A DNA stretch of 64,000 nucleotides, taken from an uncultured Acidimicrobiia bacterium (GTDB taxonomy: Bacteria > Actinomycetota > Acidimicrobiia > IMCC26256 > JAENVU01). This document shows positions 21,222-62,364 of the stretch, piece after piece; positions within the stretch are counted from its first letter, which is position 1; each line of letters opens with the position of its first letter. A program made the translations under genes and the position numbers. The notes beneath the pieces were generated by a model that searched no databases, was not told where the DNA came from, and saw nothing but the letters and a program-made list of their open reading frames with translations. The stretch is taken from NCBI GenBank assembly GCA_963835005.1, contig CAWIEA010000005.1:44069-108068 (forward strand), read 5' to 3'.

Positions 21222-21319
21222 AGCGCCCGGAGTCTATGGGCGCGCCCACCCGAACCCGCCGCGACCGGTGCCCGGTCACGGTTCACCGGAGGTTGCGTCG
21301 GTAGTGTGGGTCCCTCGTC

Positions 21320-25206: not shown

Positions 25207-25301
25207 GGTTCCCCCCGGGTGGATCGCGACGCGACGGCCGCGCACCGTAGCCCGGCGCGCTCACCTTGCGCCCCGACGACAGGTCAAGTCGAATGCGCCA
25301 C

Positions 25302-26335
25302 ATGAAGCTGCGCCTGGAACCGTCCGATGAGCTCATGCACCCGCTGGAGACCGCGGAGAACTTCAACGAGAGCATGTACTTCAACGTGTACGACCCGAAC
25401 GAGCGCGTCGGCGGGTTCTTCCGGCTCGGCAACCGCGCCAACGAGGGCTACGCGGAGATGACGACGTGCATCTACCTGCCCGACGGTCGCGTCGGCTTCA
25501 TGTTCGGTCGTCCCGAGATCGAGAGCAACGACGCGTTCGACGCGGGCGGCATGAAGTTCGAGGTGATCGAGCCCTTGGTCGAGCTGCGGGTGACGTACTC
25601 CGGCAAGGTCGTCATGCTCGACGAGCCGCTGCAGATGGCGGACCCCCGCAAGGCCTTCACCGAGAACCCCTGGGTGGACTGCACGCCGACCTCTCGTACC
25701 GCGGCCTCGTGAAGGCGTTCGGCGGCGAGCCGGTCAACGACGACGGCAGCCCGCTCATGGAGGACCTGTCCGGCGGCTTCGCCCGGGGGCACTACGAGCA
25801 GCACGTCGGGCGCGGGGCGTCATCCGCGTCGGCGACGAGGAGTGGGAGATCGACGGCCACGGGCTTCGCGACCACTCCTGGGGTCCGCGCTACTGGCAGG
25901 CGCCGTGGTACTACCGGTGGCTCACGATGAACTTCGGCGAGGACGCCGGCTTCGTGGTGTCGGTCATCACCGCGAAGGACGGCTCCGAGCGCGTCGGCGG
26001 CGTCGCGTTCGAGAACGGCGAAGTACACGCACATCACCGAGGCGTCGATCGAGACCGACTGGCAGGGTGACGACCAGTACCACGAGGAGATGCGGATCAC
26101 CGCGAAGGCGGGCGACCGCACGTACGAGATCACCGGCAGCGTGCTCAGCATGATCCCGCTGCGGAACCGGCGGAAGACCCCCGAAGGTGAGCAGCTGGTC
26201 ACCCGCATCTCCGAGGGCATGACCGAGTGGAAGTGGGACGGGAAGTCCGGGTACGGCCTGTCGGAGTACCTCGACCAGATCGTCGACGGCGCGCCGGTCG
26301 GCGCGCGCGTCCCGGTCGCAGCGGCTCACTCGGTA
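25302..26335 (+). pseudogene. conserved hypothetical protein of acyl-CoA-metabolism neighbourhoods, at least three frameshifts; 3' end undefined
   Basis: A coherent reading needs frames 0>2>1>2: MKLRLEPSDELMHPLETAENFNESMYFNVYDP...GGMKFEVIEP (ORF 25266..25712), then ...LSYRGLVKAFGGEP...FARGHYEQHV (ORF 25466..25930), then IRVGDEEWEIDGHGLRDHSWGPRYWQAPWYYRWLTMNFGEDAGF, then KYTHITEASIETDWQGDDQYHEEMRITAKAGDRTYEITGSVLSMIPLRNRR...GYGLSEYLDQIVDGAPVG (ORF 26090..). No in-frame stop lies near the expected end. Confidence 0.55.
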
Positions 26336-26340
26336 CTCCT

Positions 26341-26751
26341 TCATCGATCGCGGTGCGGAACCGCTCGATCACCTTCACGAGGAGCTTGTAGGCGATCGAG
26401 CCGTCGGCCTTCAGCAGCGGACGGAAGTTCCACTCCGCGATCGACCACGTCTTCATCGGCTCGCACGCGATCACGTCGCCGAGCGCGGGCAGCCGTCGAT
26501 GAGCGACAGCTCGCCGAAGTAGTCGCCCGGCTCGAGCGCGACCGTCCGGCCTCCGCGCACGACCTTCGCGAGCCGGACTCGATCACGTGGAAGCGCCCGC
26601 CGGGCGTGCCCTCCTCGGTGACCTCCTCGTCCTCCGAGAATTCGAGCGGCTTCGCGAGCGCGACCACCTTGCGGAGCTCGACCGGCGTGAGGTCGACGAA
26701 GAGGTCCACCTGCGCGAGCAGCTCCACCGGCGGCTGGATTTGCGGCGTCAC
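26341..26751 (-). pseudogene. cyclic-nucleotide-binding (cNMP) domain protein, two to three frameshifts
   Basis: ORF 26341..26751 starts MTPQIQPPVELLAQVDLFVDLTPVELRKVVALAKPLEFSEDEEVTEEGTPGGRFHVIESG. It continues in other frames as AKVVRGGRTVALEPGDYFGELSLIDGCPRSAT, then VIACEPMKTWSIAEWNFRPLLKADGSIAYKLLVKVIERF (ORF 26199..26474). Confidence 0.65.
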
Positions 26752-26802
26752 CTCGGTCGGAGGCTACCGGCGGGCGTGAGCTGCCCGCCTAGGTTGACCG
26801 CC

Positions 26803-27793
26803 GTGGCCCCCCGGACCCTCGACGCCGAGCGACTCGCCGCGACCTGCGCGCGCCATCTCGGTGGCGCGGTGACCGTCGAGGGCCTGCGTCGGCTCTCGGG
26901 TGGAGCGTCGCGCGAGAGCTGGTCGTTCGACGCGGTGATCGACGGCGGGGCGCGGCAGGGGCTCGTGCTGCGCCGCGACCCGGGGTCGACCGTCGGGTCG
27001 TCCGAGCGCTCGACCGAGTACCGCCTGCTGGAGGCTGCGGCGCGGCGCAGGCGTGCCGGTGCCGACGGTCCGGTTCCTGCTCGAGCCCGATGACGACATC
27101 GGCGACGGCTTCGTCATGGACCGCATCGACGGCGAGACGATCCCGCGCCGGCTCCTCCGCGACGACGGGTACGCCGCGGCGCGCGACGTGCTCGTCGGCC
27201 AGTTCGGCGCGATCGCGGCGCAGATCCACGCGGTCGACGTCGCCACGCTGCCGAAGATGGCCGGGCTCGGTCCGCTCGAGCAGATCGACGCAGTACCGCG
27301 GGCTCCTCGACCTGCATGGGCGAGCCGCACCCCGCGTTCGAGCTCGGGCTGCGCTGGCTCGAGGACCGGGTCGCCGGCGCCGGACGCGGCGAGCCGCGGC
27401 TGGTGCACGGCGACTACCGGAACGGCAACTTCATCGTCGGGCCGGAAGGCATCCGGTCGGTGCTCGACTGGGAGCTCTCGCACCTCGGCGACCCGGTCGA
27501 GGACCTGGGCTGGCTGTGCGTGAAGTCGTGGCGGTTCGGCGTGCTCGACAAGCCGGCGGGCGGGTTCGGGTCGGCCGACGCGCTGCTCGAGGCGTACGCC
27601 GCGGCCGGCGGCGGCGACGGTGTCGATGGAGCACCTGCGCTACTGGGAGACGTTCGGCACGCTGAAGTGGGGCGTGATCTGCGAGATGCAGTGCTTCAGC
27701 CACCTCCAGGGCCTCGTCCGTTCGGTCGAGCTCGCCGCGCTCGGCCGCCGCATCGCCGAGACCGAATGGGACCTGCTGGAGCTGATCGCATGA
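26803..27793 (+). pseudogene. phosphotransferase (APH/choline-kinase-like) family protein, at least three frameshifts
   Basis: GTG 26803 lies 7 nt after a TAGGTT -10. The pieces are LRRLSGGASRESWSF...STEYRLLEAAA, then VPVPTVRFLLEPDDDIGDGFVMDRIDGETIPRR..., then QYRGLLDLHGEPHPAFELGLRWLED...LVHGDYRNGNFIV...VLDWELSHLGDPVEDLGW, then MEHLRYWETFGTLKWGVI...LLELIA-stop. Together they span ORFs 26587.., 27053.. and 27316.. plus a short frame-2 piece. Confidence 0.75.
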
Positions 27794-28139
27794 CGCTGCA
27801 CGACCGCCCCACCGCGACCGAGCTCGTCGCCGCGGTGCGCGAGTACCTGGAGCGCGACGTCGATGACCGCGACCGAGGGCCGGGTCGCGTTCCATGCGCG
27901 GGTCGCCGTCAACGTCCTGGGCATGGTGGAGCGCGAGCTCGAGCTCGGCGCGGCTCAGGACGCCGAGGAGCACGACCGGCTCGTCGAGCTGCTCGGACGC
28001 GACGGCACGGTGCGCGAGCTCACCGAGGTGCTGGCCACGCGGCATCCGCGACGGCAGCCTGGACATCCCGTGGCCGGACACCGTCGCCGCGGTCCGCGAG
28101 ACCGTGCGGGCGAAGCTCGAGGTCGCCAACCCCCGCTAG
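27790..28139 (+). pseudogene. DUF6285-like small protein, two frameshifts
   Basis: The ATG overlaps the upstream stop (ATGA). MTLHDRPTATELVAAVREYLERDV is followed by TATEGRVAFHARVAVNVLGMVERELELGAAQDAEEHDRLVELLGRDGTVRELTEVLATR and then IRDGSLDIPWPDTVAAVRETVRAKLEVANPR (ORF 27894..28139). Confidence 0.6.
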
Positions 28140-28165
28140 CTGGATCGAGCCCCGAAGGAGCGCAC

Positions 28166-28950
28166 GTGAGGATCGCGACGTGGAACGTCAACTCGCTGAA
28201 GGCACGGATGCCGCGGGTCGAGGAGTGGCTCGAATATGCGCAGCCCGACGTCCTCGCGATGCAGGAGACGAAGCTGAAGGACGAGGCGTTCCCGAGCCTG
28301 GCGTTCTCCGGGCTCGGCTACGACAGCGTCCCGCACGGGCACAACCAGTGGAACGGCGTCGCCATCTTGTCGAAGGTCGGGATCGAGGACGTGACGACGC
28401 GGCTTCGACTCGGAGAGCGTGGACCCGTACGAGGGAGACGCCCGGGTCATCGCCGCGAAGTGCGGCGACGTCAACATCGTCTGCGTCTACGTGCCGAACG
28501 GCCGCGAGGTCGGGACCGAATTCTACGACCGCAAGCTCGTCTGGTTCGAAGTGCTCCACGACTGGATCGCGAAGACGTACTCCCCGGAGGACCCACTCGT
28601 CGATCCTCGGCGACTTCAACGTCGCGCCCGAGGACCGCGACGTGTGGTCGCCGAAGGCGTTCGTCGGCGCGACGCACGTGACGAAGCCGGAGCGCGCGGC
28701 GGTGCAGAAGCTCGAGCAGTGGGGCCTCGTCGACGGGTTCCGGACGCAGTACCCGGACACCGACAAGCTCTTCACCTACTGGGACTACCGCGGCGGCGAC
28801 TTCCACAAGCACAAGGGCATGCGCATCGACCTCATGCTCGTGACGCAGCCCGTCGCCGAGCGGATCACCTGGGCGACGATCGACCGCAACGCCCGCAAGG
28901 GCAAGGGCCCGTCGGACCACACCCCGCTGATCGTCGACCTGGCCGACTGA
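28166..28950 (+). pseudogene. xthA: exodeoxyribonuclease III, two frameshifts (about 28400 and 28600)
   Basis: VRIATWNVNSLKARMPRVEEWL...DVLAMQETKL...NGVAILSK is followed by DPYEGDARVIAAKCGDVNIVCVYVPNG and then ILGDFNVAPEDRDVW...YWDYRGG.F.KHKGMRIDL...SDHTPLIVDL. The pieces lie in three ORF-track frames. Confidence 0.85.
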
Positions 28951-28966
28951 CCCGAGCCGGAGCCAC

Positions 28967-28992
28967 GTCGGCCGTCGGCCGTCGGCCGTCGG
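28967..28992. repeat. tandem heptanucleotide repeat (GTCGGCC) x3.7
   Basis: Read directly: GTCGGCC GTCGGCC GTCGGCC GTCGG. It lies between the xthA stop and the -10 (TAGCGT, 29011-29016) of the downstream dehydrogenase. Confidence 0.8.
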
Positions 28993-29023
28993 AGATCTTC
29001 GACCACGGCGTAGCGTGCCGTGC

Positions 29024-30106
29024 ATGCGCGCAGCCGTCCTCGAATCCGTCCCCGGCGATCTCGTCATCGACGACCTCCAGATCGGCGACGTCGGTCCTCG
29101 CGAGGTGCTCGTCCACACGGTCACCGCGGGCATCTGCCACTCCGACCTCCACTTCATGGAGGGCAAGTACCCCTGCCCGGTGCCCGCGGTGCTCGGGCAC
29201 GAGTCGGCCGGGATCGTCGAGGCGGTCGGCTCGGAGGTCAGCTACCTCCAGCCCGGCGACCACGTGATCTCCTGCATCTCCGGCTTCTGCGGGATCTGCG
29301 CGTACTGCCTCACCGGACGGCCGAACCTCTGCGACAGGACGGGGATGGCCGCGGACCCGACCGGACCGCCGCGGCTGCGACGGGGCGACCAGGCCGTCCA
29401 CCAGTTCTTCGACCTGTCGAGCTTCGCCGAGCAGCTGCTCGTCCACGAGAACCACCTGGTGAAGATCCGCGACGACATGCCGCTCGACAAGGCCGCACTC
29501 ATCGGCTGCGGCGTGACCACCGGCGTCGGTGCGGTGATGAACACCGCGAAGGTCGCGCCGGGCGAGACCGTCGCGGTGATCGGTTGCGGCGGGATCGGGC
29601 TGAACGCGATCCAGGCCGCGGCGATCGTCGGTGCCGGGCGCATCATCGCGGTGGACCGAGTTCCGGCGAAGCTGCAGATGGCCGAGGACTTCGGCGCGAC
29701 CGACCTCGTGAACGCGTCCGAGGTCGACCCGATCCTCGCAGTCCTCGAGCTCACCGGCGGTGGCGTCGACCACGCGTTCGAGGCCATCGGGCTGAAGGCG
29801 ACGGCCGAGCAGGCGTTCAACATGCTCGCCAAGGGCGGGACGGCCACGGTCATCGGCATGATCCCGCTCGGCGAGAGCATCGAGCTCCAGGGCTTCCAGC
29901 TCCTGCTCGAGAAGAAGATCCAGGGCTCGAACATGGGCTCGAACCGGTTCCGGGTCGACATGCCGCAGTACGTCGAGTGGTACCTCGCGGGCCGGCTGAA
30001 GCTCGACGAGCTCGTCAGCGCAGTGATCACCCTCGACGAGATCAACGACGGCTTCGCGGCGCTGAAGACCGGCGAGGTCGCCCGCACCCTCATCGCCTTC
30101 GACTAG
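29024..30106 (+). CDS. zinc-dependent alcohol dehydrogenase (MDR superfamily, class III-like)
   Basis: ORF 29015..30106 is intact. It has GICHSDLH, GHESAGIVEAVG, C..C..C......C (structural zinc) and GCGGIGLNAIQ. TAGCGT lies 7 nt before ATG 29024. Confidence 0.9.
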   Translation: MRAAVLESVPGDLVIDDLQIGDVGPREVLVHTVTAGICHSDLHFMEGKYPCPVPAVLGHESAGIVEAVGSEVSYLQPGDHVISCISGFCGICAYCLTGRPNLCDRTGMAADPTGPPRLRRGDQAVHQFFDLSSFAEQLLVHENHLVKIRDDMPLDKAALIGCGVTTGVGAVMNTAKVAPGETVAVIGCGGIGLNAIQAAAIVGAGRIIAVDRVPAKLQMAEDFGATDLVNASEVDPILAVLELTGGGVDHAFEAIGLKATAEQAFNMLAKGGTATVIGMIPLGESIELQGFQLLLEKKIQGSNMGSNRFRVDMPQYVEWYLAGRLKLDELVSAVITLDEINDGFAALKTGEVARTLIAFD

Positions 30107-43703: not shown

Positions 43704-43785
43704 CGAGCGCCCGCCCCGGTGCGACCTCGGTCACCGCCGGCCACGGGTACGGACCTTGGCGAGCGACCGTCCCTACACTTGGGCG

Positions 43786-44508
43786 ATGGCCACTTCCCCC
43801 GTCGACGAGGCACAGCCGTTCTGGCCGAACCACGACCACTGGTCGGTCGAGATCCCCGGTGCCACGCCACACCCCCGCCTCGAGGTGATGGCGCCCCTGG
43901 GCGTCGTCCGGCTCCGTGACCTGACCGAGCCGATCCCGCCCCACGAGTACCTCGACCTCGAGTACATGGACTGGAAGAGCGGCGGCGACACGAACTTCGC
44001 GCCCATTGCCACCGCCGACGGCCAGCTCGACTGCCGCGGCTTCTGGAACCAGGGCGACGAGCGGCCGGACAAGGGCGCGACCTTCACGACCAATGCCGAG
44101 CAGTGCCCGACGATCAAGCGGTACGTCGAACGTGTCGGCGCGAGCTTCGGCCGCGTCCGCACGATCAAGCTCGAGCCGCAGGACCACGACACCGCGATTC
44201 GCAGCTTCCACCGCGACGACAACAACCGCTTCAACCCTGACGACGAGGGCTGGGTGGTCCGGTCGTGGCTGGAGCTCACCGACAACCCGGACAGCTACAT
44301 GCTGCTCATGGAGTCGGGGGCCGACGGCCTGCCGGACCCCGCGACCGAGATCCGGATGCCGCTGAACCGCGGCGCGCAGTTCGTCGTCGACACGCAGCGC
44401 CTCTGGCACGTCGTCGTCCACAACGGTGACGCACCGCGTTACACGCTCATCAGCTCTTTCGAGAGCAGTCCCGCGCTCGACCGCTGGATCGCGTCAGAGC
44501 TTCCCTGA
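43786..44508 (+). CDS. hypothetical protein, possible cupin/2-oxoglutarate-Fe(II)-oxygenase-like fold
   Basis: ORF 43756..44508 is trimmed to ATG 43786 (TACACT -10 lies 6 nt upstream). It is an intact, non-degenerate sequence. The HxD...H spacing (SFHRDDN ... LWHVVVHNG) is the only functional hint. Confidence 0.5.
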   Translation: MATSPVDEAQPFWPNHDHWSVEIPGATPHPRLEVMAPLGVVRLRDLTEPIPPHEYLDLEYMDWKSGGDTNFAPIATADGQLDCRGFWNQGDERPDKGATFTTNAEQCPTIKRYVERVGASFGRVRTIKLEPQDHDTAIRSFHRDDNNRFNPDDEGWVVRSWLELTDNPDSYMLLMESGADGLPDPATEIRMPLNRGAQFVVDTQRLWHVVVHNGDAPRYTLISSFESSPALDRWIASELP

Positions 44509-45812
44509 CGGGCGCAGGGGCGCCAGCTCCTCGGAGACCAGCCGCACGACCAGGTCGTCGAGGGACAGCACCGAGTAGTCGTCGACGTGGTGCGTGGTCG
44601 TGTCGCCGGGCTCGGGCGCACCCGCGGCGCCGTAGGTGAGGAAGCTGAAGCGACCGCCGGTCAGCTCGGCGAGCTGACGGAAGACGAACTCGCCCTGGTC
44701 GTCGAGCCCGCTCGATGCGATCGGCTCGACCAGGATGGCGCGCTTCGCCGCCTCGAACACCTCGACCGCGTAGTCGGCGTCGTCCGGGTAGTCGAGGTGC
44801 GGGGCCGCGTCGCCGACGAGGAAGGCGAGGCTGACGGTCTGCCCGCCCCGCCACGACGGCTTGTGGATCGCGTCGTGCAGCGCCGCGTTCACCGACTCCG
44901 GGGTGTCCCCACCCCCGTCCGCCACGACGGCACGGAGGGCGTCCTGGAACGCGCGGACGTCGGGCGTGAAGTCGAACGTGCGGGTGACGAAGGCGTCGCC
45001 CCGGTCGCGGAACACCGTCGTCGCGAACCGCACGTCGGGCGACCCGGGGAGCTCGGCCAGCCGATCCGAGATCGACACCACGTTCGCCTTCAGCTGGTCG
45101 ATCTCGTCGCCCATGCTCCCCGTCGCGTCGATCACGAACATCACGTCGAGAGCGAGCGGCCCCGGGTCGTCGACGGCGAGCGTCACCGGGACCTCGGGCG
45201 CGCCGGTGACCGGCGCCTCCGCGTGCATGCCGTCGCGCTCGACCTCGACGCGCCACGCGCCGGACGACTGCTGCGCGTCACCGGTCCGCGCGGGCGGGAA
45301 CACGAAGGCGCGGCCGTCGGCGTGCGTCCGGGCCTCCGCGACGACGCTGGCCCCCTGCAGCACCCGGACCCTCGCCCCGATCACCGGGTGTCCGCTCGCG
45401 TTCGTCACGCGCACGATGCGACGACCGCTGACGTCGACGTCGTGCACCTCGATTCCGGAACGCAGCGCCTCCTGGCGGTAGAGGAGGTAGTCCTCGAACC
45501 GCTCGTTGTCGTCGACGCTCCCCGCCCGCAGCGCCGCCGACGACTGCGGGTTGGTGACGGGCGTGTCGGGCGGCACCGCGGTGCCGGGCTCGGCGGCCCC
45601 GACGCTGCTGCTGGCGTCGCTCGTCATGGCCTCGCCTCCGGCGCCCCCGAACGAGGCCGCACGCTCGCGGCTCGGTTCGCCGTCGAGCCAGCGGCCACCG
45701 CCGTCTGCGTGATCCCCGGGCCCGGCGCCCGGCCCGGCGCACCCGGCGACCAGGGTCAGCGCGATCAGGCCTGCGGCCAGGGCCGCTCCTCGTGGACCGC
45801 GGATGGTGCGCA
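44494..45812 (-). CDS. lipoprotein with carboxypeptidase-regulatory-like and von Willebrand factor A (VWA/MIDAS) domains
   Basis: This is the C-terminal part of ORF 44494..47670 from ATG 45812. The signal plus lipobox is AAGLIALTLVAGC. It also has RIVRVTNASGHPVIGARVRVL, the MIDAS motif VIDATGSMGDEI, and GGGDTPES...FLVGDAPPH-like segments. It is intact. Confidence 0.8.
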
Positions 45813-46461
45813 TCTCGATTCCCCCCGGTTCGGGACCGTCAGGGGCTGAGACGACGCGACCGGCGCCTGCGGTTCCCACGTCGGCGGGATCGGGCTCGGG
45901 ACCGGCCTCGGGATCGGGGCCGGCCGGGCCCCGAGCGGCCTCCGGGCGTCGATGATCCGCAGACCGACGAGCCCGCCCACCAGGAGCGCGGCCCCGACGA
46001 TCGCCACCATGGCGACCGGGCTGCCGGCGTCGGTGCCGACGAGGAGGAAGTGGATCGTGACGGTGACGAGCAGGGCGAACGAGAGGTAGTGCACCCGGCG
46101 CCACATTCGCTTCGGCATCCGCCGCCGCAGCAGCGAGGTGATCTCCACCGCGAGCAGCAGGTACATCGACACGATCCCCCACGCCACCCACACCGGGTGC
46201 CACGAGGACGCGAGCGGGACGAGCACGTCGGTGATCCCGAACGGGACGTAGGAGTCGAGCACGATCGCACCGACGTGCACGCCGACGAAGACCACGGCGA
46301 GCCCACCCAGGAACCGGTGGAGGTCGGTGAGCCAGGCAGGCGTCACGCGGCCAGGACGCACCTTCGCCGACAGCAGCAGCCCCAGCACCACGCTCCCGAC
46401 GAGCAGCGACCAGGCCACGATGCCCGCCGGCGCGCGCCGCGTACCACCAGAGCTGGCTCAC
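45765..46461 (-). pseudogene. ferric-reductase-like transmembrane domain protein (MsrQ/YedZ-like, di-haem b), frameshift near 46425
   Basis: GTG 46461 shares a GTGA overlap with the apbE stop. VSQLWWYAARAGG continues in ORF 45765..46418 (VAWSLLVGSVVLGLLLSAKV...). It has six TM spans with four His (DLHRF, GVHVG, RVHYL, TIHFL). The last ~16 codons overlap the VWA gene start. Confidence 0.7.
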
Positions 46462-47409
46462 GGTCCCACCTCCACATCCGTCATCCCGCTGAGGTCGACG
46501 ACCTCGGCGACGTCCGCGAAGTCGTCCCAGCGGGCGGAGGTCAGAACGCCGTCGGGGACGAGGACCATCGCGGCGGCACCGAGGTCGTCGACCAGATCGA
46601 GCCCGTGGGCGGCGCCGAGGAACGCGGCTTTCGCCAGCACCTCGGCCTGCCAGCCCTGCGCGGCGACCGCGGTCGCCGCGAGCACCGGCGAGCGCGCGCT
46701 GGTGCCGGTCGACGGGTCGACGAGGTGGTGGCGCTCGTCGCCGTCGGCGGTCGTCCAGCGGCGACGCACGCGCGAGCTCGTCGCCACCGCACCGTTGCGC
46801 ACCTCGAGCGTCGCGACCGGGAGTCCGGTGACCGGGTGCTCGACCTCGATCCGCCACGCGTCGCCCGACGGTGCCGCACCGGCCACCCGGACGTCGCCGC
46901 CGACGTTGACGCACACGCCCGCGGCACCGAACCGCATGAGGTCCTCGGCGACGATGTCCGCGGCGAGGCCCTTGCCGATCCCGCCCGGGTCGAACCCGAC
47001 ACCATCGGGGATGCGGATGGTCCCGGCTTCGTCGTCGATCTCGATGCGGTGCGCGCCGGTGCACAGTGCGGACGTCTCCTGGGGCGCGCCGTCTTCCAGG
47101 CGCTCGAAGCTGTCGACGTAGCCGGCGCGCAGCACTGCCCCGAGCAGCGTCGGGTCGAAGCGGCCCGCGGTGACGCGATAGCCCTCGAGCGCGCGGCGCA
47201 CGAGGAGACGCGTCTCGGCCGACACGCGCCAGCGGCACTCCCCCGGCGCGGTTGAGCCGGCTGATCTCGCTGCTCGCGACGAACCGGCTCCATCGCCGTT
47301 CGAGGTGCACGAGCCGGCCACGCGCGATCTCGGGGAGCCCGCGCGGGCCGTCGACCACGGTGACCTCCGCGGTCGCACCCATCACCGCGAACGACGCGTC
47401 AGCTCGCAT
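46458..47409 (-). pseudogene. apbE: FAD:protein FMN transferase (ApbE family), one frameshift near 47240
   Basis: The N-terminus MRADASFAVMGATAEVTVVDG...LERRWSRFVASSEISRLNRAGG lies in the frame of ORF 44494..47670. The rest is in ORF 46458..47378 (GRFDPTLLG...GFDPGGIGKGLAAD...VNVGGDVRV...AVATSS...HHLVDPSTG). Confidence 0.8.
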
Positions 47410-47743
47410 GGCTGCTGGAGTCCGGCGACTGGCTCTGGGCGTCCGGGGACGAGGTGCCGGGCGCGCCCTGCGCGCCCCAGCGGTCACCGGATCCCCAGGG
47501 ATCCGTGGGCGCTCCCCACTCGTCGCCGTACCGGGACTGGTCGGAGCCCTGCGACCCGTCCGTCGCGGTCGACCCGCGGTCGGTGTCGGCCGAGCCGTGG
47601 TCGGTCCCGGTGGCGCCGCTGGTGCTCGACGTCGCCATGAACCCGCCGAGCCCGCAGAGCGCCGCGACACTGGCGGTGGCGACGACCTTGCGGGCCCGAC
47701 GGGCGGGATGGGGCGTTCGGGGGCTCGGGGTGGGCTGGGCCAT
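47399..47743 (-). CDS. small exported Ser/Thr/Asp/Gly-rich, probably disordered protein (copy A); carries an S-G-A-T motif
   Basis: ORF 47399..47743. GAGAGGAG is the SD. The signal is RRARKVVATASVAALCGLGGFMA, followed by TSSTSGATGTDHGSADTD...EWGAPTDPWGSGDRWGAQG...SSSHAS. Its stop region overlaps the apbE ATG by 11 nt. Confidence 0.55.
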   Translation of the reverse strand: MAQPTPSPRTPHPARRARKVVATASVAALCGLGGFMATSSTSGATGTDHGSADTDRGSTATDGSQGSDQSRYGDEWGAPTDPWGSGDRWGAQGAPGTSSPDAQSQSPDSSSHAS

Positions 47744-47785
47744 CGGGGCTCCTCTCGGACCGGGCCCGCGCAGCGTGATGAGCGA

Positions 47786-47829
47786 ACGTAAGAGCCAGCG
47801 GAGAACGTCCGGAGCGCCAGGTAAGAAGG
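47786..47829 (-). promoter_or_regulatory. pair of GTAAGA motifs (ACGTAAGAG-N24-GGTAAGAAGG on + strand) 43-86 nt upstream of small gene A; candidate response-regulator site / promoter
   Basis: GTAAGA occurs at 47788-47793 and 47821-47826, 33 bp apart. The same two motifs with the same spacing and the same distance to the start codon recur upstream of copy B. Confidence 0.55.
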
Positions 47830-47853
47830 CCGTCCCGAGGTCGGATCGACCGG

Positions 47854-48186
47854 TCAGCTCGCATGGCTGGTGGTGTTCGCGGTGGCGGACGTGCTGTGGG
47901 CCGACGAGCTGCTCGAGCTCGAGCCGTCCGCGGCGGACACCGACGTCGCGCTCCAGTCGGAGGAGTCCGACGACGGCGACACGTCAGTGGTGGTCGTGGT
48001 CGCCTGGGTGCTCTTCGAGCTCGTGGCGCGCTTCGTGCCGGCCGACGACGCGGTCAGCGTCGCGGGCGCCTGGCTGGCCATGAGGCCGCCGAGCCCGAGC
48101 ACCGCGACGACGCTCGCGCCGCCGACGATCCTCCGGGCCCGGAGCGCCGCGTGCCGGCGGCGACGTCGTGGTGTGGATCCGGCCAT
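47854..48186 (-). CDS. small exported Ser/Thr-rich, probably disordered protein (copy B, paralogue of 47399-47743)
   Basis: ORF 47854..48345 is trimmed to ATG 48186 (GGAGGAAG SD). The signal is [31 protein letters not shown], followed by an S/T-rich tail ending TTSHAS. The last 16 nt are identical to copy A. Confidence 0.5.
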
Positions 48187-48228
48187 GGCTTCCTCCGTCG
48201 GTTGGGGGTCGTGCCCACCCTCCGCTCC

Positions 48229-48297
48229 GGACGTAAGAGGCCGTCCAGAGGTGGCGGAGGCCGCGGTAAGAAGGCTTCCGGCGCGGGTCTTACGTCC
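48229..48297. promoter_or_regulatory. divergent control region: GTAAGA x2 (33-bp spacing) plus inverted TCTTAC; outer 10-bp inverted repeat GGACGTAAGA / TCTTACGTCC
   Basis: GTAAGA occurs at 48233-48238 and 48266-48271, and TCTTAC at 48288-48293. GGACGTAAGA (48229-48238) is the exact reverse complement of TCTTACGTCC (48288-48297). The latter sits about 30-40 nt upstream of the leaderless response-regulator start (TAACGT -10 at 48315-48320, ATG 48329). Confidence 0.55.
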
Positions 48298-48328
48298 CTC
48301 TCGCGTCGTCGCCGTAACGTGGCGAGCC

Positions 48329-49025
48329 ATGGCCACCGACACCACGGCCCGAGTGCTCGTCGCCGAGGACGACCGCAGCGTGCGCGAGTCCCTCGTGCTC
48401 GCGCTGAGCGTCGAGGGCTACGACGTCGAGGCCGTGCGCGACGGCGACCAGGCGCTCCAGTCGGTCGCCCGCGCCGTCCCCGACGTGATCGTGCTCGACG
48501 TGATGATGCCGATCCTCGACGGCCTGACCGTGTGCCGCCGGCTGCGCTCGCAGCAGTGCGAGACGCCGATCCTCATGCTCACCGCCCGCCACGAGGTCTC
48601 GGACCGGGTGTCCGGGCTCGACGCCGGCGCGGACGACTACCTCCCGAAGCCGTTCTCGCTCGACGAGCTGCTCGCGCGGCTGCGCGCGCTGCTCCGGCGG
48701 ACGAGCGTCTCGGGATCGGACGAGCAGCTCCGGATCGCGGACCTCACCCTCGACCCGCAGCGCCGCACCGCGTCACGAGGCGGCGCGCACGCTCGAGCTG
48801 ACGAAGACCGAGTTCGACCTGCTCGAGCTGCTGATGCTGAACACGGGCATCGTGCTCAGCCGCGAAACGATCTACGACCGCATCTGGGGCTTCGACTTCG
48901 AGACCGGGTCTCGCTCGCTCGACGTCTACATCGGCTACCTGCGCCGCAAGACCGAGGCCGGCGGCGAGCCGCGCCTCGTCCACACCGTGCGCGGCGTCGG
49001 GTACGTCGTGCGCGAGTCCTCGTGA
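48329..49025 (+). pseudogene. OmpR-family response regulator, one frameshift near 48785
   Basis: [22 protein letters not shown]...[14 protein letters not shown]...[26 protein letters not shown] lies in the frame of ORF 47870..49135. The winged helix is in ORF 48834..49025 ([32 protein letters not shown]...[11 protein letters not shown]). Confidence 0.85.
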
Positions 49026-49131
49026 GCGCGGGTGACGGCGTGAGCCGAGGACTGCACGCGACGCCCACACCCGAACGGGTCCGAGGCGGGGCCACCGCGG
49101 CCCGGCGACGGAGTCGCCGAGAGCGGGCCCG

Positions 49132-50481
49132 ATGAGCCTTCGCTGGAGGATCGCGATCGGGCTCGCGGTGATCGCCGCGCTCGTGTGCGCGCTCGGCGCC
49201 GCGACCGCGTACATCACGACTCGCAACCGGCTGGAGAGCAACGTCGACGACTCGCTGCGTCGCCGGTGCCCGGGCTGCGGACCTCCGCGCCGGTCAACCG
49301 CCCCGGCGGCAACCCGGGCGGCGGCGAAGGGGCCCTGTTCGGTGGCTGCCCGCCCCCGGGCGTCATCGGCGGCTCGGCGGCGCAGGTCGTCGACGAGAAC
49401 GGCACGAAGACGCCGTGCTTCTTCGGCAGCCTCACGCTCCCCTACAACGCCTCGGACCGCCGGCTCGACGTCGGCGAGGCCGGACTGCGCAGCGTCGACA
49501 TCGGCGGGACCCGAGTACCGCCTGCTCACGCTGCCCCGCTCGGACGGGACCACGTTCCAGGTCGCCCGGTCGCTCTCGGAGAACGAGGACGTGCTCTCGT
49601 CGCTGCGGCTCCAGCTGCTGCTGATCAGCGCGATCGGGATCGCGGCCGCGGCCGTCCTCGGCTGGTTCTTCGCCCGCCGCATCGTGCGCCCCATCGAGAA
49701 GCTCCGCGACACCGCGGAGCAGATCGCGCGGACGCAGGACCTCGACGCGCCGATCCCCGAGTCCGGCAGCGGCGAGGTCGGAAGCCTCGCCGGCTCGTTC
49801 TCGACCATGGTCGGCGCGCTCGCGGAGTCCAAGCGCCAGCAGCAGCAGCTGGTCGCCGACGCGAGCCACGAGCTCCGCACACCGCTCACCAGCCTGCGCA
49901 CCAACGCGGAGCTCCTCGACCGCACCGGCGCGCTCACGTCCGATCAGCGCGACCGCGCCGTCCAGGGCATCCGGCTCGAGGTGAACGAGCTCACCGACCT
50001 CGTGTCGGAGCTCGTCGAGCTCGCGACCGATCGGGCCGACGCCGAGGTGCCCGAGCCGGTCGCGCTCGCCGGGCTCGCCGAGGACGTCGCCGAACGCACC
50101 CGCCGCCGCACGGGACGTGAGGTGACGGTCACGGTGAACGGCGACGCCGGCACCGCGCTCATCGGCCCGCACGCGCTCGACCGTGCGCTCTCGAACCTGG
50201 TCGAGAACGCCGTCAAGTACAGCCCGGGCGCGATCGACGTCGTGGTGCACGGCCAGCAGGTCGAGGTTCTCGACCGGGGCATCGGGATCTCGGTCGACGA
50301 CCAGGCCCACGTCTTCGACCGCTTCTTCCGAGCCGCGACCGCGCGGACCGAGCCGGGCTCGGGCCTCGGGCTCGCGATCGTCCAGCAGATCGTGGAACGC
50401 CAGGGCGGACGGGTCTGGGCCCGGAGCCGCGAGGGCGGCGGCGCCGCCGTCGGCTTCGAGCTGCCGGCCGCCCCGTCTTGA
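49132..50481 (+). pseudogene. sensor histidine kinase (two TM, HAMP, HisKA, HATPase_c), two compensating frameshifts (about 49260 and 49510)
   Basis: ORF 49132..50481 has TM1, then about 85 aa of Arg/Ala nonsense. The sensible sensor domain (...GLRTSAPVNRPGGNPGGGEGALFGGCPPPGVIGGSAAQVVDENGTKTPCFFGSLTLPYNASDRRLDVGEAGLRSVDIGG) is in the frame of ORF 49185..50120. Back in frame it reads YRLLTLPRSDG...HAMP...ASHELRTPLTSL...NLVENAVKYS...DRGIGI...GSGLGLAIV. Confidence 0.8.
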
Positions 50482-57259: not shown

Positions 57260-58107
57260 ATGGGAGTAGGGCTGCCTCGAGGGCTGTCGCCGAGCTCGTT
57301 CGGTGCGTTCAAGAGCTGCCCGCTCGCGTTCAAGTTCTCGTACCTGGACAAGCTGCCCCAACCGCCGTCACCCGCGGCGAGCAAGGGGACGCTCGTCCAC
57401 CGTGCACTCGAGCTGCTGATGCTGCGCGACGCACCGGACCGCACGATCGAGGCCGCGCTCGCGGACCTCGGCCCGCGCGCGCGTCGAGCTCGCCGACGAC
57501 CCCGACTTCGCGGACCTCGAGCTGAGCGACGCCGAATGGGACACGTTCCACGCCGAGGCCGAGCAGCTCGTGCACCGCTACTTCGAGCTCGAGGACCCGA
57601 CGACGGTGCGGCCGATCGGCCTCGAGCTGCGGCTCGCGGCGACGGTCGGCTCCGTGCACCTGCGCGGGATCATCGACCGCCTCGAGCTGGTCGAGGACGA
57701 CGAGCTCGTGATCACCGACTACAAGACCGGGTCGGTGCCGGGCGAGCGCCACGAGCTGCAGCGGCTCGCCGGCGTGCACATGTACGCGCTCATGGTCGAG
57801 CAGCTGCTCGGCAAGCGGCCGATCCGCGTGCAGCTCCTCTACTTGTCGCGACCCGAGGCGATCATCGCGATCCCCTCGGACCAGACGGTCACCGGCGTCG
57901 CCGCGCAAGACCCAGGCCCTCTGGAACGCGATCCAGGCGTCGTGCGCGCGTGACGACTTCCGCCCGCGCCCGGGGCCGCTGTGCGAGTGGTGCTCGTACC
58001 AGGCCTACTGCCCCGCGTTCGGCGGCGACCCGACGATGGCGCCCGAGCTGCGCGGTCCGGGCACGGTGATCGCACCGTCGCTGCCGCTGACGGCCGCGCC
58101 CGCCTAG
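57260..58107 (+). pseudogene. PD-(D/E)XK nuclease family protein (RecB/AddB/Cas4-like, Fe-S cysteines), two frameshifts (about 57470 and 57900)
   Basis: MGVGLPRGLSPSSFGAFKSCPLAFKFSYLDKLP...GTLVHRALE (ORF 57242..) is followed by ...LRGIIDRLELVEDDELVITDYKTGS... (ORF 57570..57953). Then comes ...LWNAIQASCARDDFRPRPGPLCEWCSYQAYCPAFGG...stop TAG 58105-58107. Confidence 0.75.
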
Positions 58108-58127
58108 CGGCGCGTACCCTCGCGTCG

Positions 58128-58683
58128 ATGGACCCGGGCTTCCGGCTCCCCAGCCCCGAGGAACTGCCCGCGGTCCAGGCGTTCGACCGCGCGGTCGAGC
58201 GCGCGCTCGAACCACTGAGGAACCCCGCACTCGACCGGGTGATGTACACGATCTCGAGTGCCGCCGACCACAGCCTCCTCTGGTTCGGCATCGCGGGACT
58301 GCGGTCGCTGCGGCGCGGTGACCTCCCGTTCGCGCTGAAGTTCGCGGCCGCGATGGGGATCGAGTCGGGTCTGACCAACGGCGCGATCAAGGCGCTCTTC
58401 CGCCGCGGTCCGGCCGGAGCACGAGATCGCCGAGGGTCCACTCCCCTACGGGATGCGGCGGCCGATCACGTCGTCGTTCCCGTCCGGGCACGCGACCGCG
58501 GCGTTCACGGCCGCGTCGATCCTCGCCCGCAGCGGCCACGGCGACGCGTTCTGGTTCGTGCTCGCGACCGTCGTCGCGAGCAGCCGCGTCTACGTGCGGA
58601 TGCACCACTCGTCGGACGTGGTGGCGGGCGCGTTGGTCGGCCTGGCCCTCGGCCGCGTGGCGCGGCGCTTCTTCCCCGCCTGA
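58128..58683 (+). pseudogene. PAP2-family phosphatase, one frameshift near 58405
   Basis: The MDPGFRLPS... segment of ORF 57981..58847 (...LTNGAIKALFRR) continues in ORF 58453..58683 (RRPITSSFPSGHATAAF...SRVYVRMHHSSDVVAG). Confidence 0.75.
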
Positions 58684-58774
58684 TCCGCCACGCCCGGACG
58701 GGCTCGGGCCCGGAATGCGTGGTCCGGGCCCGGCGTTACCATCGAGACCGCCGTCACCATCGGGAGGATCCTCC

Positions 58775-59363
58775 GTGCCCCGTGAGATCGCCGCCACCTG
58801 GGACTATCGCTGCCCCTTCGCCCGCAACGGTCATGAAGCGATCGTGAACGCGATCCGGGAGGGCACCGACATCGAGTTCCGGTTCCTGGCGTTCTCGCTG
58901 GACCAGGCGCACGTCGAAGAGGGCGAGCCGCCGGTGTGGGACCGGGGTCCCGAGGCATGGGGCACGGGGACGCTCGCGCTCCTCTACGGCATCGCGATCC
59001 GGGACAACTTCCCCGAGAGGTTCCTCGACGCCCACGTCGAGCTGTTCGCCGCAGCGCCACGATCACGGCCTGCAGCTCGGGCACGAGGACGTCCTCGAGG
59101 CGGCCGTCGAGAAGGTCGGGCTCGACGTCGACGCGGTCAAGGCCGAGGCCTGGAGCGGACGCCCGCTGAAGACGTTGATCGCCGAGCACACCGAGGCGGT
59201 CGAGCAGCACGCCGTGTTCGGGGTCCCGACCTACGTCGAGGGTGACGAGGCGGTGTTCATCCGGTTCATGGAGCGCGGCCGCGCCGACGACCTCCTCCGG
59301 GCCCTCGACCTGCTCGACTGGTCCCGGCTGAACGAGTTCAAGCGCACCAAGATCGCCCGCTGA
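58775..59363 (+). pseudogene. DsbA-like thioredoxin-fold protein, one frameshift near 59055
   Basis: It starts from GTG 58775 in ORF 58715..59245 (IAATWDYRCPFARNGHEAIV...). The C-terminus is in ORF 59175..59363 (...HAVFGVPTYVEGDEAVFIRFMERG...). Confidence 0.7.
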
Positions 59364-59526
59364 CCGCGGTCGAGGTCGGGACGAGCGAGCCCCGTCGACC
59401 CGGCCTACGCTCGACTCTCCAGGTCGCTCCGGCCTTCTGGCACTGCGGGTCGTTCGGGTGTCGCACTCCGTCCCGCTACCACCCTCTCTCCTCCTCCGTG
59501 ACCGTCCCCGGCCTACGCTCGGCTCC

Positions 59527-60952
59527 ATGACGGCGCGCATGTCGCCGAGCGAAGCGATCATGTGGGCAGCCGAGAAGGACCCGTCGCTCCGCTCGGACTT
59601 CGCCAACCTGACGATCCTCGACGGCGTCCCCGACATGGAGCGGATGCGGTCGAAGGTCGAGCAGGCGCTCGTCGAGCTGCCGCGCCTCGAACGAGCGGGT
59701 CGTGAGCCCGCCTTTGCGGATTGCGCCGCCGGAATGGCGGACCGACCCGACGATCGATCTCGACTACCACCTGCGGCGCGTCGCGCTCCCCGAGCCCGGG
59801 TCGATGCGCGACCTCCTGGACGTCGCGGCGACGTTGACCGCGACGCCCCTCGACCGCTCCCGGCCCCTGTGGGAGTTCACGCTGCTCGAGGGCCTGGCCG
59901 ACGGACGGTCCGCACTCCTCCAGCGCGTGCACCACACCGTCACCGACGGCGTCGGCGGGCTGAAGCTCTCGCTCAGCCTCGTCGACTTCGAGCGCGGCCG
60001 GCGCCCGAGATGCGCGACACCGTGCGCGCGCTCACCGACGACGAGCAGTCGCGGATCATGCAGGACCTCGCCGAGGACCCCGTCGACCGGGACTCGCCGA
60101 TGAACGTGCTGCGCGACGCGGTCGGGTTCCGCTGGCAGCGCAACGTCGACCTCGCGCGCGAAGGGTGTCGTGGCGGGTGGCTCGATCGCCCGGCACCCGA
60201 CGGCCGTCCCTCGCCTCGCGAAGGACTCCATCGGGATGGCCGCGTCGCTGCGCCGCCAGGTGCTCATCGCCGGGCGCTCCAAGTCCCGACTCCTCGCGAC
60301 CCGCTCCCTCGGCCGCCGCTACGACGTGCTCGACCTCGGTCTCGAGGACGCACGCGAAGCGGGCCACGCGCTCGGCGGGACCATCAACGACGTCTTCGTC
60401 ACCGGCGTCGCGGGCGGACTCGGCCTGTACCACGACCGACTCGGCGCGCCCGTCGAGGAGCTCCGGATGGCCATGGCCGTCAGCACCCGCGAGGGCCATG
60501 GCGACAACGCCGGGAACCACTTCGTGCCGACCCGCGTCACCGTGCCCGTGATCCCGAAGGAGCCCGGCGAGCGGTTCGGGAAGGTGCGGACCAAGATCAC
60601 GACCGTCCGCCACGAGCCCGCGCTCGAGGCCGCGGACGCGTTCGCGGCCGTGGCCGCGGGCCTGCCGACGTCGGTCATCGTCGGCCTGCTGCGCAACCAG
60701 ACCCGATCGGTCGACTTCGCGACGTCGAACCTCCGCGGCAGCCCCATCGACCTCTACATCGGCGGCGCGCGCATCGAGGCGAGCTACCCGATGGGGCCGC
60801 GGAGCGGGTGCGCGGTGAACGTCACCGCCCTCTCGTACTGCGGCGACCTGTGCGTCGGCATCCACTCGGACCCAGCTGCCGTCACCGACCCCGACGCACT
60901 GGTCGAGTGCCTGCGCGACTCGTTCGACACGCTGTTCGCCACCGGCGTCTGA
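59527..60952 (+). pseudogene. wax ester synthase/diacylglycerol acyltransferase (WS/DGAT), three frameshifts (about 59690, 60000, 60165)
   Basis: MTARMSPSEAIMWAAEKDPSLRSDFANLTILDG (ORF 59458..) is followed by ...LWEFTLLEGLADGRSALLQRVHHTVTDGVGG (HHxxxDG motif, ORF 59702..60103). It then returns to the first frame, and the C-terminal half is in ORF 60170..60952 (...GGTINDVFV...NLRGSP...). Confidence 0.8.
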
Positions 60953-60961
60953 ACCCTGCGA

Positions 60962-61312
60962 TCAGGGACGGCGGGGTGCGGGTCCCGCCGGTGACACCGC
61001 GTCGAGCCACTCCTCGTGGCCCGGGTCGAGCCAGGCCCGGTGGTCGCAGTGGCCGCGGCCGTCGACCACGTACACGTGCAGCGTCGGCGCGTCTTCGGCG
61101 AGCGCGAGCAGGTCGTTGGCCCGCGGGTGCGGTGGTGCGGCGTCGAGCAGGTCGACGAGCGCGACGACGGCGACGACGCGGCTGGCGCAGTCGGGACAGG
61201 CCGAGACGGTCGCCGCCTCGAGGTTGCCGGTGATCGACAGGAGGCCCGACGCCTCGTCCGCGTCCATCTCGACCCGCTGACCGTCGTCATCGACGAACGC
61301 GAGCTCCGCCAT
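60962..61312 (-). CDS. hypothetical protein with CxxC ... HCxH residues
   Basis: ORF 60962..61312 is intact at 116 aa (MAELAFVDDDGQRVEMDADEASGLLSITGNLEAATVSACPDCASRVVAVV...GRGHCDHRAWLDPGHEEW). TAGGTT lies 6 nt before the ATG. Confidence 0.5.
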   Translation of the reverse strand: MAELAFVDDDGQRVEMDADEASGLLSITGNLEAATVSACPDCASRVVAVVALVDLLDAAPPHPRANDLLALAEDAPTLHVYVVDGRGHCDHRAWLDPGHEEWLDAVSPAGPAPRRP

Positions 61313-61318
61313 CGCCCG

Positions 61319-61375
61319 AACCTACCCGCCGCACCGGGACCAGCCGGCCTCCCACCGCCGTCCCCGGCGTACGCT
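61319..61375. promoter_or_regulatory. back-to-back leaderless promoters (-10 TAGGTT for 61312 minus; -10 TACGCT for 61383 plus)
   Basis: AACCTA at 61319-61324 is TAGGTT on the minus strand, 6 nt from ATG 61312. TACGCT at 61370-61375 lies 7 nt from ATG 61383. Confidence 0.6.
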
Positions 61376-61382
61376 CCCGGCC

Positions 61383-62364
61383 ATGCGAGCGGTGGTGTTC
61401 CCCGGCGACGGCAGGATCGAGCTGGCCGAGCGCCCGTCCCCCACGCCCGGGCCCGGCGAGGTGCTGGTGCGGGTCCACGGCGCCGGTCTGAACCGCGCCG
61501 ATCTGGTCCAGCGGGCCGGCTTCTATCCCGCGCCACCCGGCGTCCCGGCCGACATCCCGGGGATGGAGTTCTCGGGCGAGGTCCTCGCGACCGGAACCGG
61601 CACCGGCACGGTCGCGACCGGGGACCGCGTCTTCGGCGTGGTCGGAGGCGGCGCGCAGGCCGAGGAGGTCGTCGTCCCCGAGTCGTGCTGCGTGCTCGGT
61701 GCCCGGCCACCTCGACCTCGTCGACGCGGGCGGGATCCCGGAGGTGTTCGTCACCGCTCACGACGCGATGCGCACCCGCGCCGGCCTTCAACCGGGTGAG
61801 CACGTGCTCGTCCACGCGGTCGGCTCGGGGGTGGGCACCGCGGTCGTGCAGCTCGCCAAGGCGTTCGGCAACACCGTCACCGGCACGGCCCGAACCGCCG
61901 ACAAGCTCGAACGGGCACGTGCGCTCGGCCTCGACCACGGCGTCCTCGCCCCCGATCCCTTCGACGCGGCGGTGCTCGCGCAGGCGGTGCTCGACGCGGG
62001 CGGGCCGGCGGACGTCGTCGTCGAGCTGGTCGGTGGCGGCTACGTGGAGGTCGACCTCGCGGTGACCGCGATCCAGGGACGGATCGTGATCGTCGGCACG
62101 CTCGCAGGCGGGGGCGTTCAGCTGCCGTTGATGACCTTGATGAGCAAGCGGCTCGCGCTCCACGGCACCGTGCTGCGGGCAAGGACGATCGAGGAGAAGG
62201 CCGCGGCGACCGCAGCGTTCGTCGGTGAGGTCGCTGCCGCTGCTCCAGGACGGGCGCCTGCAGCCGGTCGTCGACCGGATCCTGCCGCTCGACGCCGCCG
62301 CCGAGGCCTACGACCTGATGGCCTCGAACACCACATTCGGCAAGGTGATCCTCTCGGCGGTCTG
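61383..62364 (+). pseudogene. NADPH:quinone oxidoreductase (MDR, zeta-crystallin type), two frameshifts (about 61695 and 62235)
   Basis: ORF 61383..61799 covers the N-terminus (VRVHGAGLNRADLVQRAGFYP...). The middle is in ORF 61699..62676 (VHAVGSGVGTAVVQLAKAFG...). The end ...LPLLQDGRLQPVVDRILPLDAAAEAYDLMASNTTFGKVILSAV-stop (62362-62364) is in the first frame. Confidence 0.8.

Follow-up and report, generated by a model that had tools for sequence, protein, structure and literature searches.

A 64,000-nucleotide (nt) stretch of DNA from an uncultured Acidimicrobiia bacterium (contig CAWIEA010000005.1; hereafter the window, whose position numbers are used throughout) carries a gene cluster in which a two-component signalling system is transcribed divergently from genes for two small proteins, for ApbE, a member of the flavin adenine dinucleotide (FAD):protein flavin mononucleotide (FMN) transferase family, and for a predicted di-haem membrane cytochrome. 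The plus strand encodes an OmpR-family response regulator (RR; 48329-49025; 231 amino acids in its intact orthologue) and a histidine kinase (HK; 49132-50481). Intact orthologues carry the domains Response_reg and Trans_reg_C, and HAMP, HisKA and HATPase_c, respectively, and the best NCBIfam matches of the RR all fall below equivalog cut-offs, which marks it as a generic member of its family. On the minus strand reside small gene B (47854-48186; 110 amino acids), its diverged paralogue A (47399-47743; 114 amino acids), apbE (46458-47409; PF02424), a gene for an MsrQ-like, ferric-reductase-type cytochrome with six helices (45765-46461; PF01794) and a gene for a VWA lipoprotein (44494-45813). 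The G+C content of this region is about 72%. The RR, HK, apbE and cytochrome frames are broken in this assembly, as discussed below, and are intact in L001, a syntenic relative from a Joint Genome Institute (JGI) metagenome that is 83% identical at the nucleotide level.

Most of the layout described in an earlier note on this DNA, which was made from the sequence alone, proved to be accurate, including the divergent orientation of the RR-HK pair. Gene A overlaps the apbE start such that its stop lies 11 nt inside the apbE ATG (47409), the sequence GTGA at 46458-46461 is common to the apbE stop codon and the GTG start of the cytochrome gene, and the tail of the cytochrome gene (stop at 45765) runs 49 nt into the start of the VWA gene (ATG at 45813). 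The note had counted five coupled minus-strand genes, and this description holds for A, apbE, the cytochrome gene and the VWA gene, which overlap or abut. B is uncoupled from A: the two genes are separated by 110 nt, and A has its own copy of a putative control element. The cytochrome and VWA genes are about 53 nt apart in the relatives L003 and L004.

A neighbourhood scan anchored on ApbE, with one genome per species, returned 80 loci whose ApbE proteins show 46-74% identity, all from metagenome-assembled genomes (MAGs) of Acidimicrobiia or other Actinomycetota except L043, which is binned as Burkholderiales. A gene of the small-protein family is present in 70 of these loci, a PF01794 cytochrome gene in 68 and both in 60, while RR and/or HK genes occur in 53 and the VWA gene in two. 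The syntenic relatives L001, L003 and L004 retain an intact RR-HK pair divergent from a small gene, apbE, the cytochrome gene and the VWA gene, in that order. Across the collection, 47 loci have the small gene upstream of apbE with the 11-nt overlap and 13 have it next to apbE but not overlapping; in 12 it sits at another place in the locus, for the most part downstream of the cytochrome gene. This comparison shows a conserved unit of one or two small proteins, an ApbE without an export signal and a di-haem PF01794 cytochrome, usually beside an OmpR-type two-component system. The association that the earlier note had singled out, namely ApbE and a di-haem cytochrome linked to such a system without an FMN_bind partner, therefore recurs widely; the VWA gene does not belong to this group. 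Because the small, exported, disordered protein is the constant companion of ApbE, it is the best candidate for a partner or substrate of the enzyme. By Pfam, no recurrent further partner was seen among the 148 neighbouring open reading frames (ORFs), of which family-2 glycosyltransferases are the commonest (7 of 148), and the 25 families listed as commonest for these ORFs (down to 2 members) do not include FMN_bind.

Some loci (L082, L084, L054, L044 and others) display an alternative order in which the genes for the RR, ApbE, the cytochrome, the small protein and the HK follow one another on one strand. This arrangement ties the module even more tightly to the two-component system, and it leaves room for the module to act as a sensory accessory.

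The small proteins belong to a family for which profile searches with A and B returned no known counterpart, and neither these two proteins nor their relatives match any Pfam or NCBIfam model. Eight database homologues of A were found (57-74% identity), a word-index search with B returned no match, and when the A-type alignment was used as a profile against 1.84 billion representatives, only 20 matches at E <= 1e-3 emerged, all with the same architecture. In relatives, gene callers annotate ORFs antisense to the small genes (L001 9503-9877 and L004 5951-6376; compare 47870-48175 in the window), and the family, especially its B type, is therefore largely missing from protein databases.

Among the 82 sequences used for comparison of the family, 71 carry the basic N-terminal motif RRR-H-P-A-x-R-[AS]-R, which is followed by a moderately hydrophobic helix ending in G-L-x-G-x-M-A and then by a tail of 50-90 residues rich in Ser, Thr and Ala. 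B has the same plan, with an Arg-rich N-terminus, one helix and a Ser/Thr-rich tail ending in N-T-T-S-H-A-S (nt 47857-47877). An AlphaFold model of A contains a single helix (residues 17-29), with the remainder below 70 in predicted local distance difference test (pLDDT) score. A twin-arginine translocation (Tat) signal was considered but is not supported, since twin Arg residues beside the hydrophobic core are not conserved (R-A-R-Q, R-S-R-V). Within the tail, typically at a distance of 20-38 residues from the C-terminus, 43 of 82 members carry the motif [WY]-[SAG]-A-[TSQP], where shuffling that preserves composition predicts 4.3.

The most striking feature of the family is its extreme C-terminus, which reads [ST]-x-[AG]-Ser-COOH in all 82 members (2.4 expected). 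Numbered from the last residue as position 0, the terminus carries Ser at 0 in every sequence, Ala (43) or Gly (39) at -1, and Ser (70) or Thr (12) at -3; position -2 is mostly His (49), followed by Arg (10), Ser (9) and Gly (5), Thr predominates at -5 (59), and Asp (26), His (18) or Asn (15) are found at -6. The resulting consensus is [D/H/N]-T-[ST]-[ST]-[H/K/R]-[AG]-S-COOH, which in A corresponds to the heptapeptide D-S-S-S-H-A-S (amino acids 108-114; 47402-47422, minus strand). Because the motif is retained in the 13 loci whose small gene stops before apbE and in the 12 loci that have the gene elsewhere, conservation of the C-terminus is not a consequence of the gene's overlap with apbE. 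Synonymous codon variation is seen at -1 and -3, and the terminal Ser always uses an AGY codon.

When repaired, the ApbE of the window matches PF02424 over nearly its full length (E 5e-50; profile positions 1-264 of 266), and phmmer matches it to the structures of TM1553, Vibrio cholerae ApbE and Listeria FmnB. In all 80 loci the ApbE domain begins at residue 1-10 (M-x-A-[DE]-x-x-F-x-x-M-G) and the protein lacks a signal peptide; no hydrophobic segment lies in frame upstream of apbE, and the earlier note had overlooked that the signal is missing. V. cholerae ApbE uses Ser241, His257 and Asp285 as catalytic residues (PMC12052999). The equivalent Ser (A-T-S) and His (H-H-L/I-x-D-P) are kept in 84 of 84 members of the clade represented here, whereas the Asp285 equivalent is Glu in all 84 and the Thr four positions further on is replaced by Lys in 83. 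The clade motif is thus A-E-x-L-x-K (as in L001 10344-11294 and in L008-L087) in place of the A-D-x-L-x-T of solved ApbE/Ftp enzymes. The corresponding residues of Escherichia coli ApbE, D280 and T284, are ligands of metal site 1 (PMC4767422), and the substitution might alter metal dependence or substrate recognition.

The repaired cytochrome matches PF01794 above the gathering score (E 5e-8), and has no nicotinamide adenine dinucleotide (NAD)/FAD domain. The four transmembrane His residues to which the earlier note had assigned two b haems are indeed conserved in 73 relatives (DLHRF, xHV, WRxxH and TxH) and fall into two pairs. Among the same relatives no conserved [ST]GA[ST]-like site was found in the cytochrome, in which the conserved Ser and Thr positions are in LS, TS and GTD.

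Sequences upstream of the small genes bear signs of both duplication and regulation. A direct repeat, D1, joins 47844-47879 (minus strand) with 47389-47424 at a spacing of 455 nt and 83% identity; its first copy is a duplicated junction made of the 3' end of B and a 12-nt stub of the apbE start, ATGCGAGCTGAC. The putative control element is also present twice, at 48233-48272 and at 47788-47827. On the evidence of this repeat and the junction sequences, the paralogues B and A arose by a tandem duplication of about 445-455 nt that took in the control element and the small gene together with the initial 12 nt of apbE. Only one small gene, of the B type, is present in each of L003 and L004, and A is the diverged tandem duplicate in the lineage of the window and L001. 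In A, the Thr of the W-S-A-T motif has been lost (now W-G-A-Q), and a G-A-T-x-T-D-H sequence has been gained beside the anchor.

The intergenic region between the RR gene and the small gene aligns across 11 lineages, with near-invariant blocks ACGCGAGAG-n5-GTAAGAC, TTCTTAC and CTCTTAC, the last two 33 bp apart. In the window, this control element occupies 48233-48293 (minus strand) and consists of GTAAGA (48288-48293; TCTTAC when read on the plus strand) and TTCTTAC-N26-CTCTTAC. A pattern scan of the window finds TTCTTAC-N26-CTCTTAC exactly twice (0 expected), upstream of B and upstream of A, and all five TCTTAC hexamers of the 64 kb fall in these two regions. A relaxed form of the pattern occurs once per locus, in the corresponding place, in L003, L004, L008-L023 and L027, and L001 and L002 have a second copy upstream of A. 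The element is conserved in 21 loci, which form the clade with RR identities of 72% or more, and it is a good candidate for the operator of the adjoining RR. Scans for sigma-70 promoters and intrinsic terminators gave no match, but are uninformative at 72% G+C. In both the window and L001, the extracytoplasmic sensor domain of the HK (window approximately 49300-49480, in a shifted frame; L001 HK residues approximately 70-100) contains two Cys residues, in G-G-C-P-P-P-G and T-P-C-F-F-G, which possibly form a disulfide or redox switch.

Work on characterized ApbE enzymes offers a framework for interpreting the invariant C-terminus. The minimal motif recognized by ApbE comprises seven residues, D-x-x-[ST]-G-A-[ST], with FMN attached to the last one; such a tag functions best when placed at either end of a protein, and changing Asp to Ala has minor effects while changing Gly to Ala leaves about 50% of flavinylation (PMC12052999). 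The C-terminus of the small-protein family aligns with this motif at -6, -3, -1 and 0 and differs from it at -2. Because this invariant terminus resembles a published seven-residue motif that works best terminally, we infer that the C-terminal heptapeptide is a better candidate for a flavin acceptor than T-S-G-A-T of A (amino acids 41-45; 47609-47623, minus strand), the site that the earlier note had proposed.

We therefore tentatively propose, with a confidence that stops somewhat short of an even balance, that this locus represents a variant, specific to Acidimicrobiia and related Actinomycetota, of the flavin-based transmembrane electron-transfer modules in which ApbE accompanies an MsrQ-like protein, and that the C-terminal Ser of the small protein serves as its FMN acceptor. 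In such a scheme, the RR would bind the TCTTAC boxes and turn on the small gene or genes together with the translationally coupled apbE and cytochrome genes. ApbE would then move FMN from FAD onto the invariant C-terminal Ser of D-S-S-S-H-A-S in A and N-T-T-S-H-A-S in B, which would make this terminus the natural equivalent of the engineered terminal 'flavin-tag' of seven residues described below. Since ApbE is apparently cytosolic, transfer would probably precede export of the unfolded tail. Once outside, the membrane-tethered flavin on its flexible stalk could exchange electrons with the outer haem of the cytochrome, which has no NAD(P)H domain and would draw on the quinol pool or on a cytosolic reductase, and the flavin could finally hand electrons to some extracellular acceptor.

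A bolder formulation, which we regard as possible but on balance unlikely, is that these proteins of about 100 residues constitute a new class of ApbE substrate: membrane-anchored, disordered proteins that carry covalent FMN on their last residue, are modified in the cytoplasm by the Glu/Lys clade of ApbE, and are then exported as flavin tethers that link a di-haem cytochrome to extracellular redox partners. If so, cytoplasmic modification before export would remove the need to export FAD.

Several observations weigh against the small protein as the flavin acceptor. Position -2 is occupied by His, Lys or Arg in place of the canonical Gly (His in 49 of 82, Gly in 5), and Asp is found at -6 in only 26 of 82 members, although A is one of them. 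By the positive-inside rule the N-terminus of the small protein is cytoplasmic and its tail is predicted to lie outside, yet ApbE carries no signal for export. The model therefore requires that the tail be modified before export or that ApbE be exported by some other route; cytosolic ApbE enzymes do exist (PMC12052999), and modification before export would be the simplest resolution, but this step is speculative and the weakest in the model. About 10 of the 80 loci have no visible small gene, some of these on contigs that are truncated or frameshifted. Ser/Thr-rich tails can bear many other modifications, the chemistry of an ApbE with Glu and Lys at metal site 1 could differ, and a substrate with an FMN_bind, NqrC or RnfG domain may be encoded elsewhere in these genomes, of which the ApbE neighbourhoods were compared.

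These same difficulties give substance to the strongest rival explanation, in which the small proteins are not ApbE substrates at all and serve instead as single-pass accessory subunits, whether as assembly or stabilizing partners of the cytochrome, as docking partners of ApbE, or as signalling accessories of the HK like those of three-component systems, while ApbE flavinylates the cytochrome or a protein encoded elsewhere. We consider this to be a serious, though lesser, possibility. It accommodates the non-canonical residue at -2 and the predicted separation of a cytosolic ApbE from an external tail; the single operon that lies between the regulator genes in several lineages fits a sensory accessory; and the cytoplasmic H-P-A-x-R-A-R sequence found at the N-terminus of 71 of the 82 proteins plays no part in the flavin model. 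However, the cytochrome offers no conserved [ST]GA[ST]-like site for ApbE and no known substrate domain recurs nearby. An accessory function would also leave unexplained both the invariant terminal Ser that follows Ala or Gly and the tight coupling of the small gene to apbE.

The earlier note knew of no described system with this composition. Literature searches yielded nothing on it beyond the papers cited here, but a close relative does exist in the 'MsrQ-like' clusters described by Meheust et al. 2021 (PMC8238504). These clusters, which are enriched in Actinobacteria, likewise place apbE beside a six-helix, two-haem membrane protein of PF01794; they are uncharacterized and are proposed to transfer electrons across the membrane to an extracytosolic flavin (PMC8238504). 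They typically include a gene with an FMN_bind domain, whereas the present locus has a family of small disordered proteins and neither FMN_bind nor an NAD domain. The filter applied in that survey demanded that ApbE, FMN_bind, DUF2271 or DUF3570 carry a signal peptide or lipidation site (PMC8238504). Here ApbE has no signal and all three substrate domains are absent, although the PF01794 gene lies well within the five-gene distance used to define the class, overlapping apbE by 4 nt. The locus therefore stands outside the operational definition of the class, and the survey would have skipped this module. We regard it as a distinct variant of the MsrQ-like class, characterized by a signal-less ApbE with a variant metal site and by a new, unannotated small-protein family.

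Other known systems share single features with the module. The engineered 'flavin-tag' (Tong et al. 2021, reviewed in PMC12052999) is also an unstructured seven-residue terminal sequence that ends in the Ser or Thr that receives FMN, but it is synthetic and has Gly at -2, where the natural candidate family has His, Lys or Arg. The cytosolic ApbE of Klebsiella pneumoniae likewise has no signal peptide, but its substrate is a soluble fumarate reductase with an FMN_bind domain (PMC12052999), whereas the sole conserved candidate here is a membrane-anchored or exported disordered peptide. MsrQ (YedZ) of the E. coli MsrPQ system shares the PF01794 haem-b membrane fold that conducts electrons outward; the present module has no MsrP-type molybdoenzyme partner and is associated instead with ApbE and a two-component system. 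Finally, DUF2271 and DUF3570 were, like the small-protein family, found through the context of orphan apbE genes as conserved neighbours with a Ser/Thr motif, but they are folded, contain canonical [ST]GA[ST] and are backed by experimental proof (PMC8238504), whereas the candidate here is disordered and non-canonical. About 4% of genomes have an 'orphan' apbE, which implies that substrates are still to be identified (PMC8238504).

The module is common in soil Acidimicrobiia, a little-studied and largely uncultured group, and it offers a testable candidate in the form of a disordered protein in which nothing but the anchor and the terminal Ser motif is invariant. If this Ser carries FMN, then the recognition rules of ApbE are wider than currently described, flavinylation can occur before export, and natural short labelling tags exist. 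If it does not, the protein is still a conserved, unannotated partner of a haem/flavin module that is tied to a two-component system with a candidate operator.

The broken reading frames raise the question of whether the cluster is functional in this genome. Comparison with L001 by tblastn and DNA alignment revealed six single-base insertions, near 47230 in apbE, 46432 in the cytochrome gene, 48785 in the RR gene, and 49259, 49288 and 49512 in the HK gene. The earlier note had treated apbE and the cytochrome gene as open frames and missed that their spans of 952 nt and 697 nt each switch frame once; the RR gene also switches once and the HK gene three times. With L001 proteins as tblastn queries, apbE and the RR gene are each split over two frames, and the HK sensor domain is out of frame for about 84 codons relative to the intact L001 orthologue of 448 amino acids. 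The insertions could be real mutations in a decaying pseudogene cluster: all six sit in four adjacent, functionally linked genes (HK, RR, apbE and cytochrome) and outside long homopolymers, and comparison with L001 shows seven other genes to be intact, among them A and the VWA gene within the locus itself.

However, codon-usage Viterbi segmentation of the whole window detects frame switches within many unrelated genes, and the stitched segments give back full-length Pfam domains in an xthA/exonuclease III homologue (Exo_endo_phos, 1-225 of 225), purK, an APH-type kinase, a WS/DGAT acyltransferase gene and a zinc alcohol dehydrogenase gene. Moreover, all six changes at the locus are +1 insertions, and close relatives stem from long-read soil MAG projects, with records bearing Flye-style 'contig_N' names. 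For these reasons assembly error is the likeliest cause of the frame breaks, and the window looks like an indel-prone long-read assembly. Locus-specific pseudogenization was dropped as the principal explanation because the breaks occur throughout the window, and we consider it improbable. The frame switches outside the locus lie at 21314-22995, 25251-30103, 57284-62362 and elsewhere, and besides the genes just named they affect those for a DUF7064/7065 protein and for PDDEXK, PAP2 and DSBA proteins.

In the small genes A and B, the G+C content at third codon positions (GC3) reaches 0.92 and 0.94, respectively, the ratios of nonsynonymous to synonymous substitution rates (dN/dS) are 0.34 and 0.69, and indels relative to L001 are multiples of 3; on these grounds A and B can be taken as real coding genes with fast-evolving tails. 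Such genes might nevertheless be mere leaders for translational coupling, or the split-off signal and linker of a once-anchored ApbE, with no function of their own. The 11-nt ATG...TGA overlap, the lack of a Shine-Dalgarno sequence ahead of the apbE ATG, the start of the ApbE domain at residue 1 and the rapid evolution of the tail are all compatible with this idea, but it is very unlikely to be correct, because the small gene is away from the apbE start in about 12 loci and non-overlapping in 13, the N- and C-terminal motifs persist in both sets, and the frame offset between the small gene and apbE differs among groups. A programmed frameshift that fuses the small protein to ApbE was also considered and rejected, since this offset varies between loci and the small gene can follow the cytochrome gene.

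The remaining alternative is the proposal of the earlier note, in which A is flavinylated at Thr45 in T-S-G-A-T, immediately past the signal sequence, or the VWA lipoprotein accepts the electrons, within a five-gene operon. The sequence T-S-G-A-T does fit the four-residue core motif, but it has Ser rather than Asp at -6. A strict [ST]GA[ST] is present in only three of nine A-type sequences (one other has GGTT), although G-A-T-T-T-D-H is kept in eight of these nine. B-type proteins lack the strict core, as do the single small proteins of L003 and L004. Family-wide, 15 of 82 members have it where 12.7 are expected, which is the level of chance.

With regard to the VWA lipoprotein, Pfam recognizes VWA_4/VWA and a carboxypeptidase-regulatory-like beta domain, and the D-x-T-G-S metal-ion-dependent adhesion site (MIDAS) motif is present; no conserved [ST]GA[ST]-like site was found in the protein. 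Its structure model (pLDDT 79, predicted template modelling score 0.79) places a beta-sandwich ahead of the VWA domain, and Foldseek matches it to integrin beta-I, anthrax-toxin-receptor VWA and bacterial adhesin VWA domains, with nothing among these matches that points to redox chemistry. In the more distant L005 and L006 (Actinomycetota) and L007 (Anaerolineales), the VWA gene and a convergent gene of 240 codons are kept, without the two-component system, small gene, apbE or cytochrome gene. Because it adjoins so few ApbE loci and its orthologues stand alone in this manner, the VWA protein, which the note had regarded as a component of the system, is best viewed from these comparisons as a bystander, an ancestral co-directional neighbour that lies downstream of the conserved module in this sub-lineage. 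Thus, even though the VWA gene overlaps the cytochrome gene in the window, its absence from 78 of 80 loci and its adhesin- or integrin-like fold, together with the poor conservation of T-S-G-A-T, leave this proposal with scarcely any probability.

Two further sets of neighbouring genes were observed. In a sub-clade comprising L017-L023 and L027, the module is followed, about 2.5 kb downstream from apbE, by a gene for a family-2 glycosyltransferase that contains a membrane domain and might glycosylate the Ser/Thr-rich tails; in the same sub-clade, a further gene for a secreted protein precedes the small gene, about 1 kb upstream (for example, L019 3913-4725). In the window, a convergent gene of 240-250 codons on the plus strand (43756-44508) overlaps the stop of the VWA gene by 15 nt. 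Its product shows a weak Pfam match of the Asp/Arg-hydroxylase type (E 0.012), and the gene is kept beside the VWA gene or beside the cytochrome gene in relatives L008-L016.

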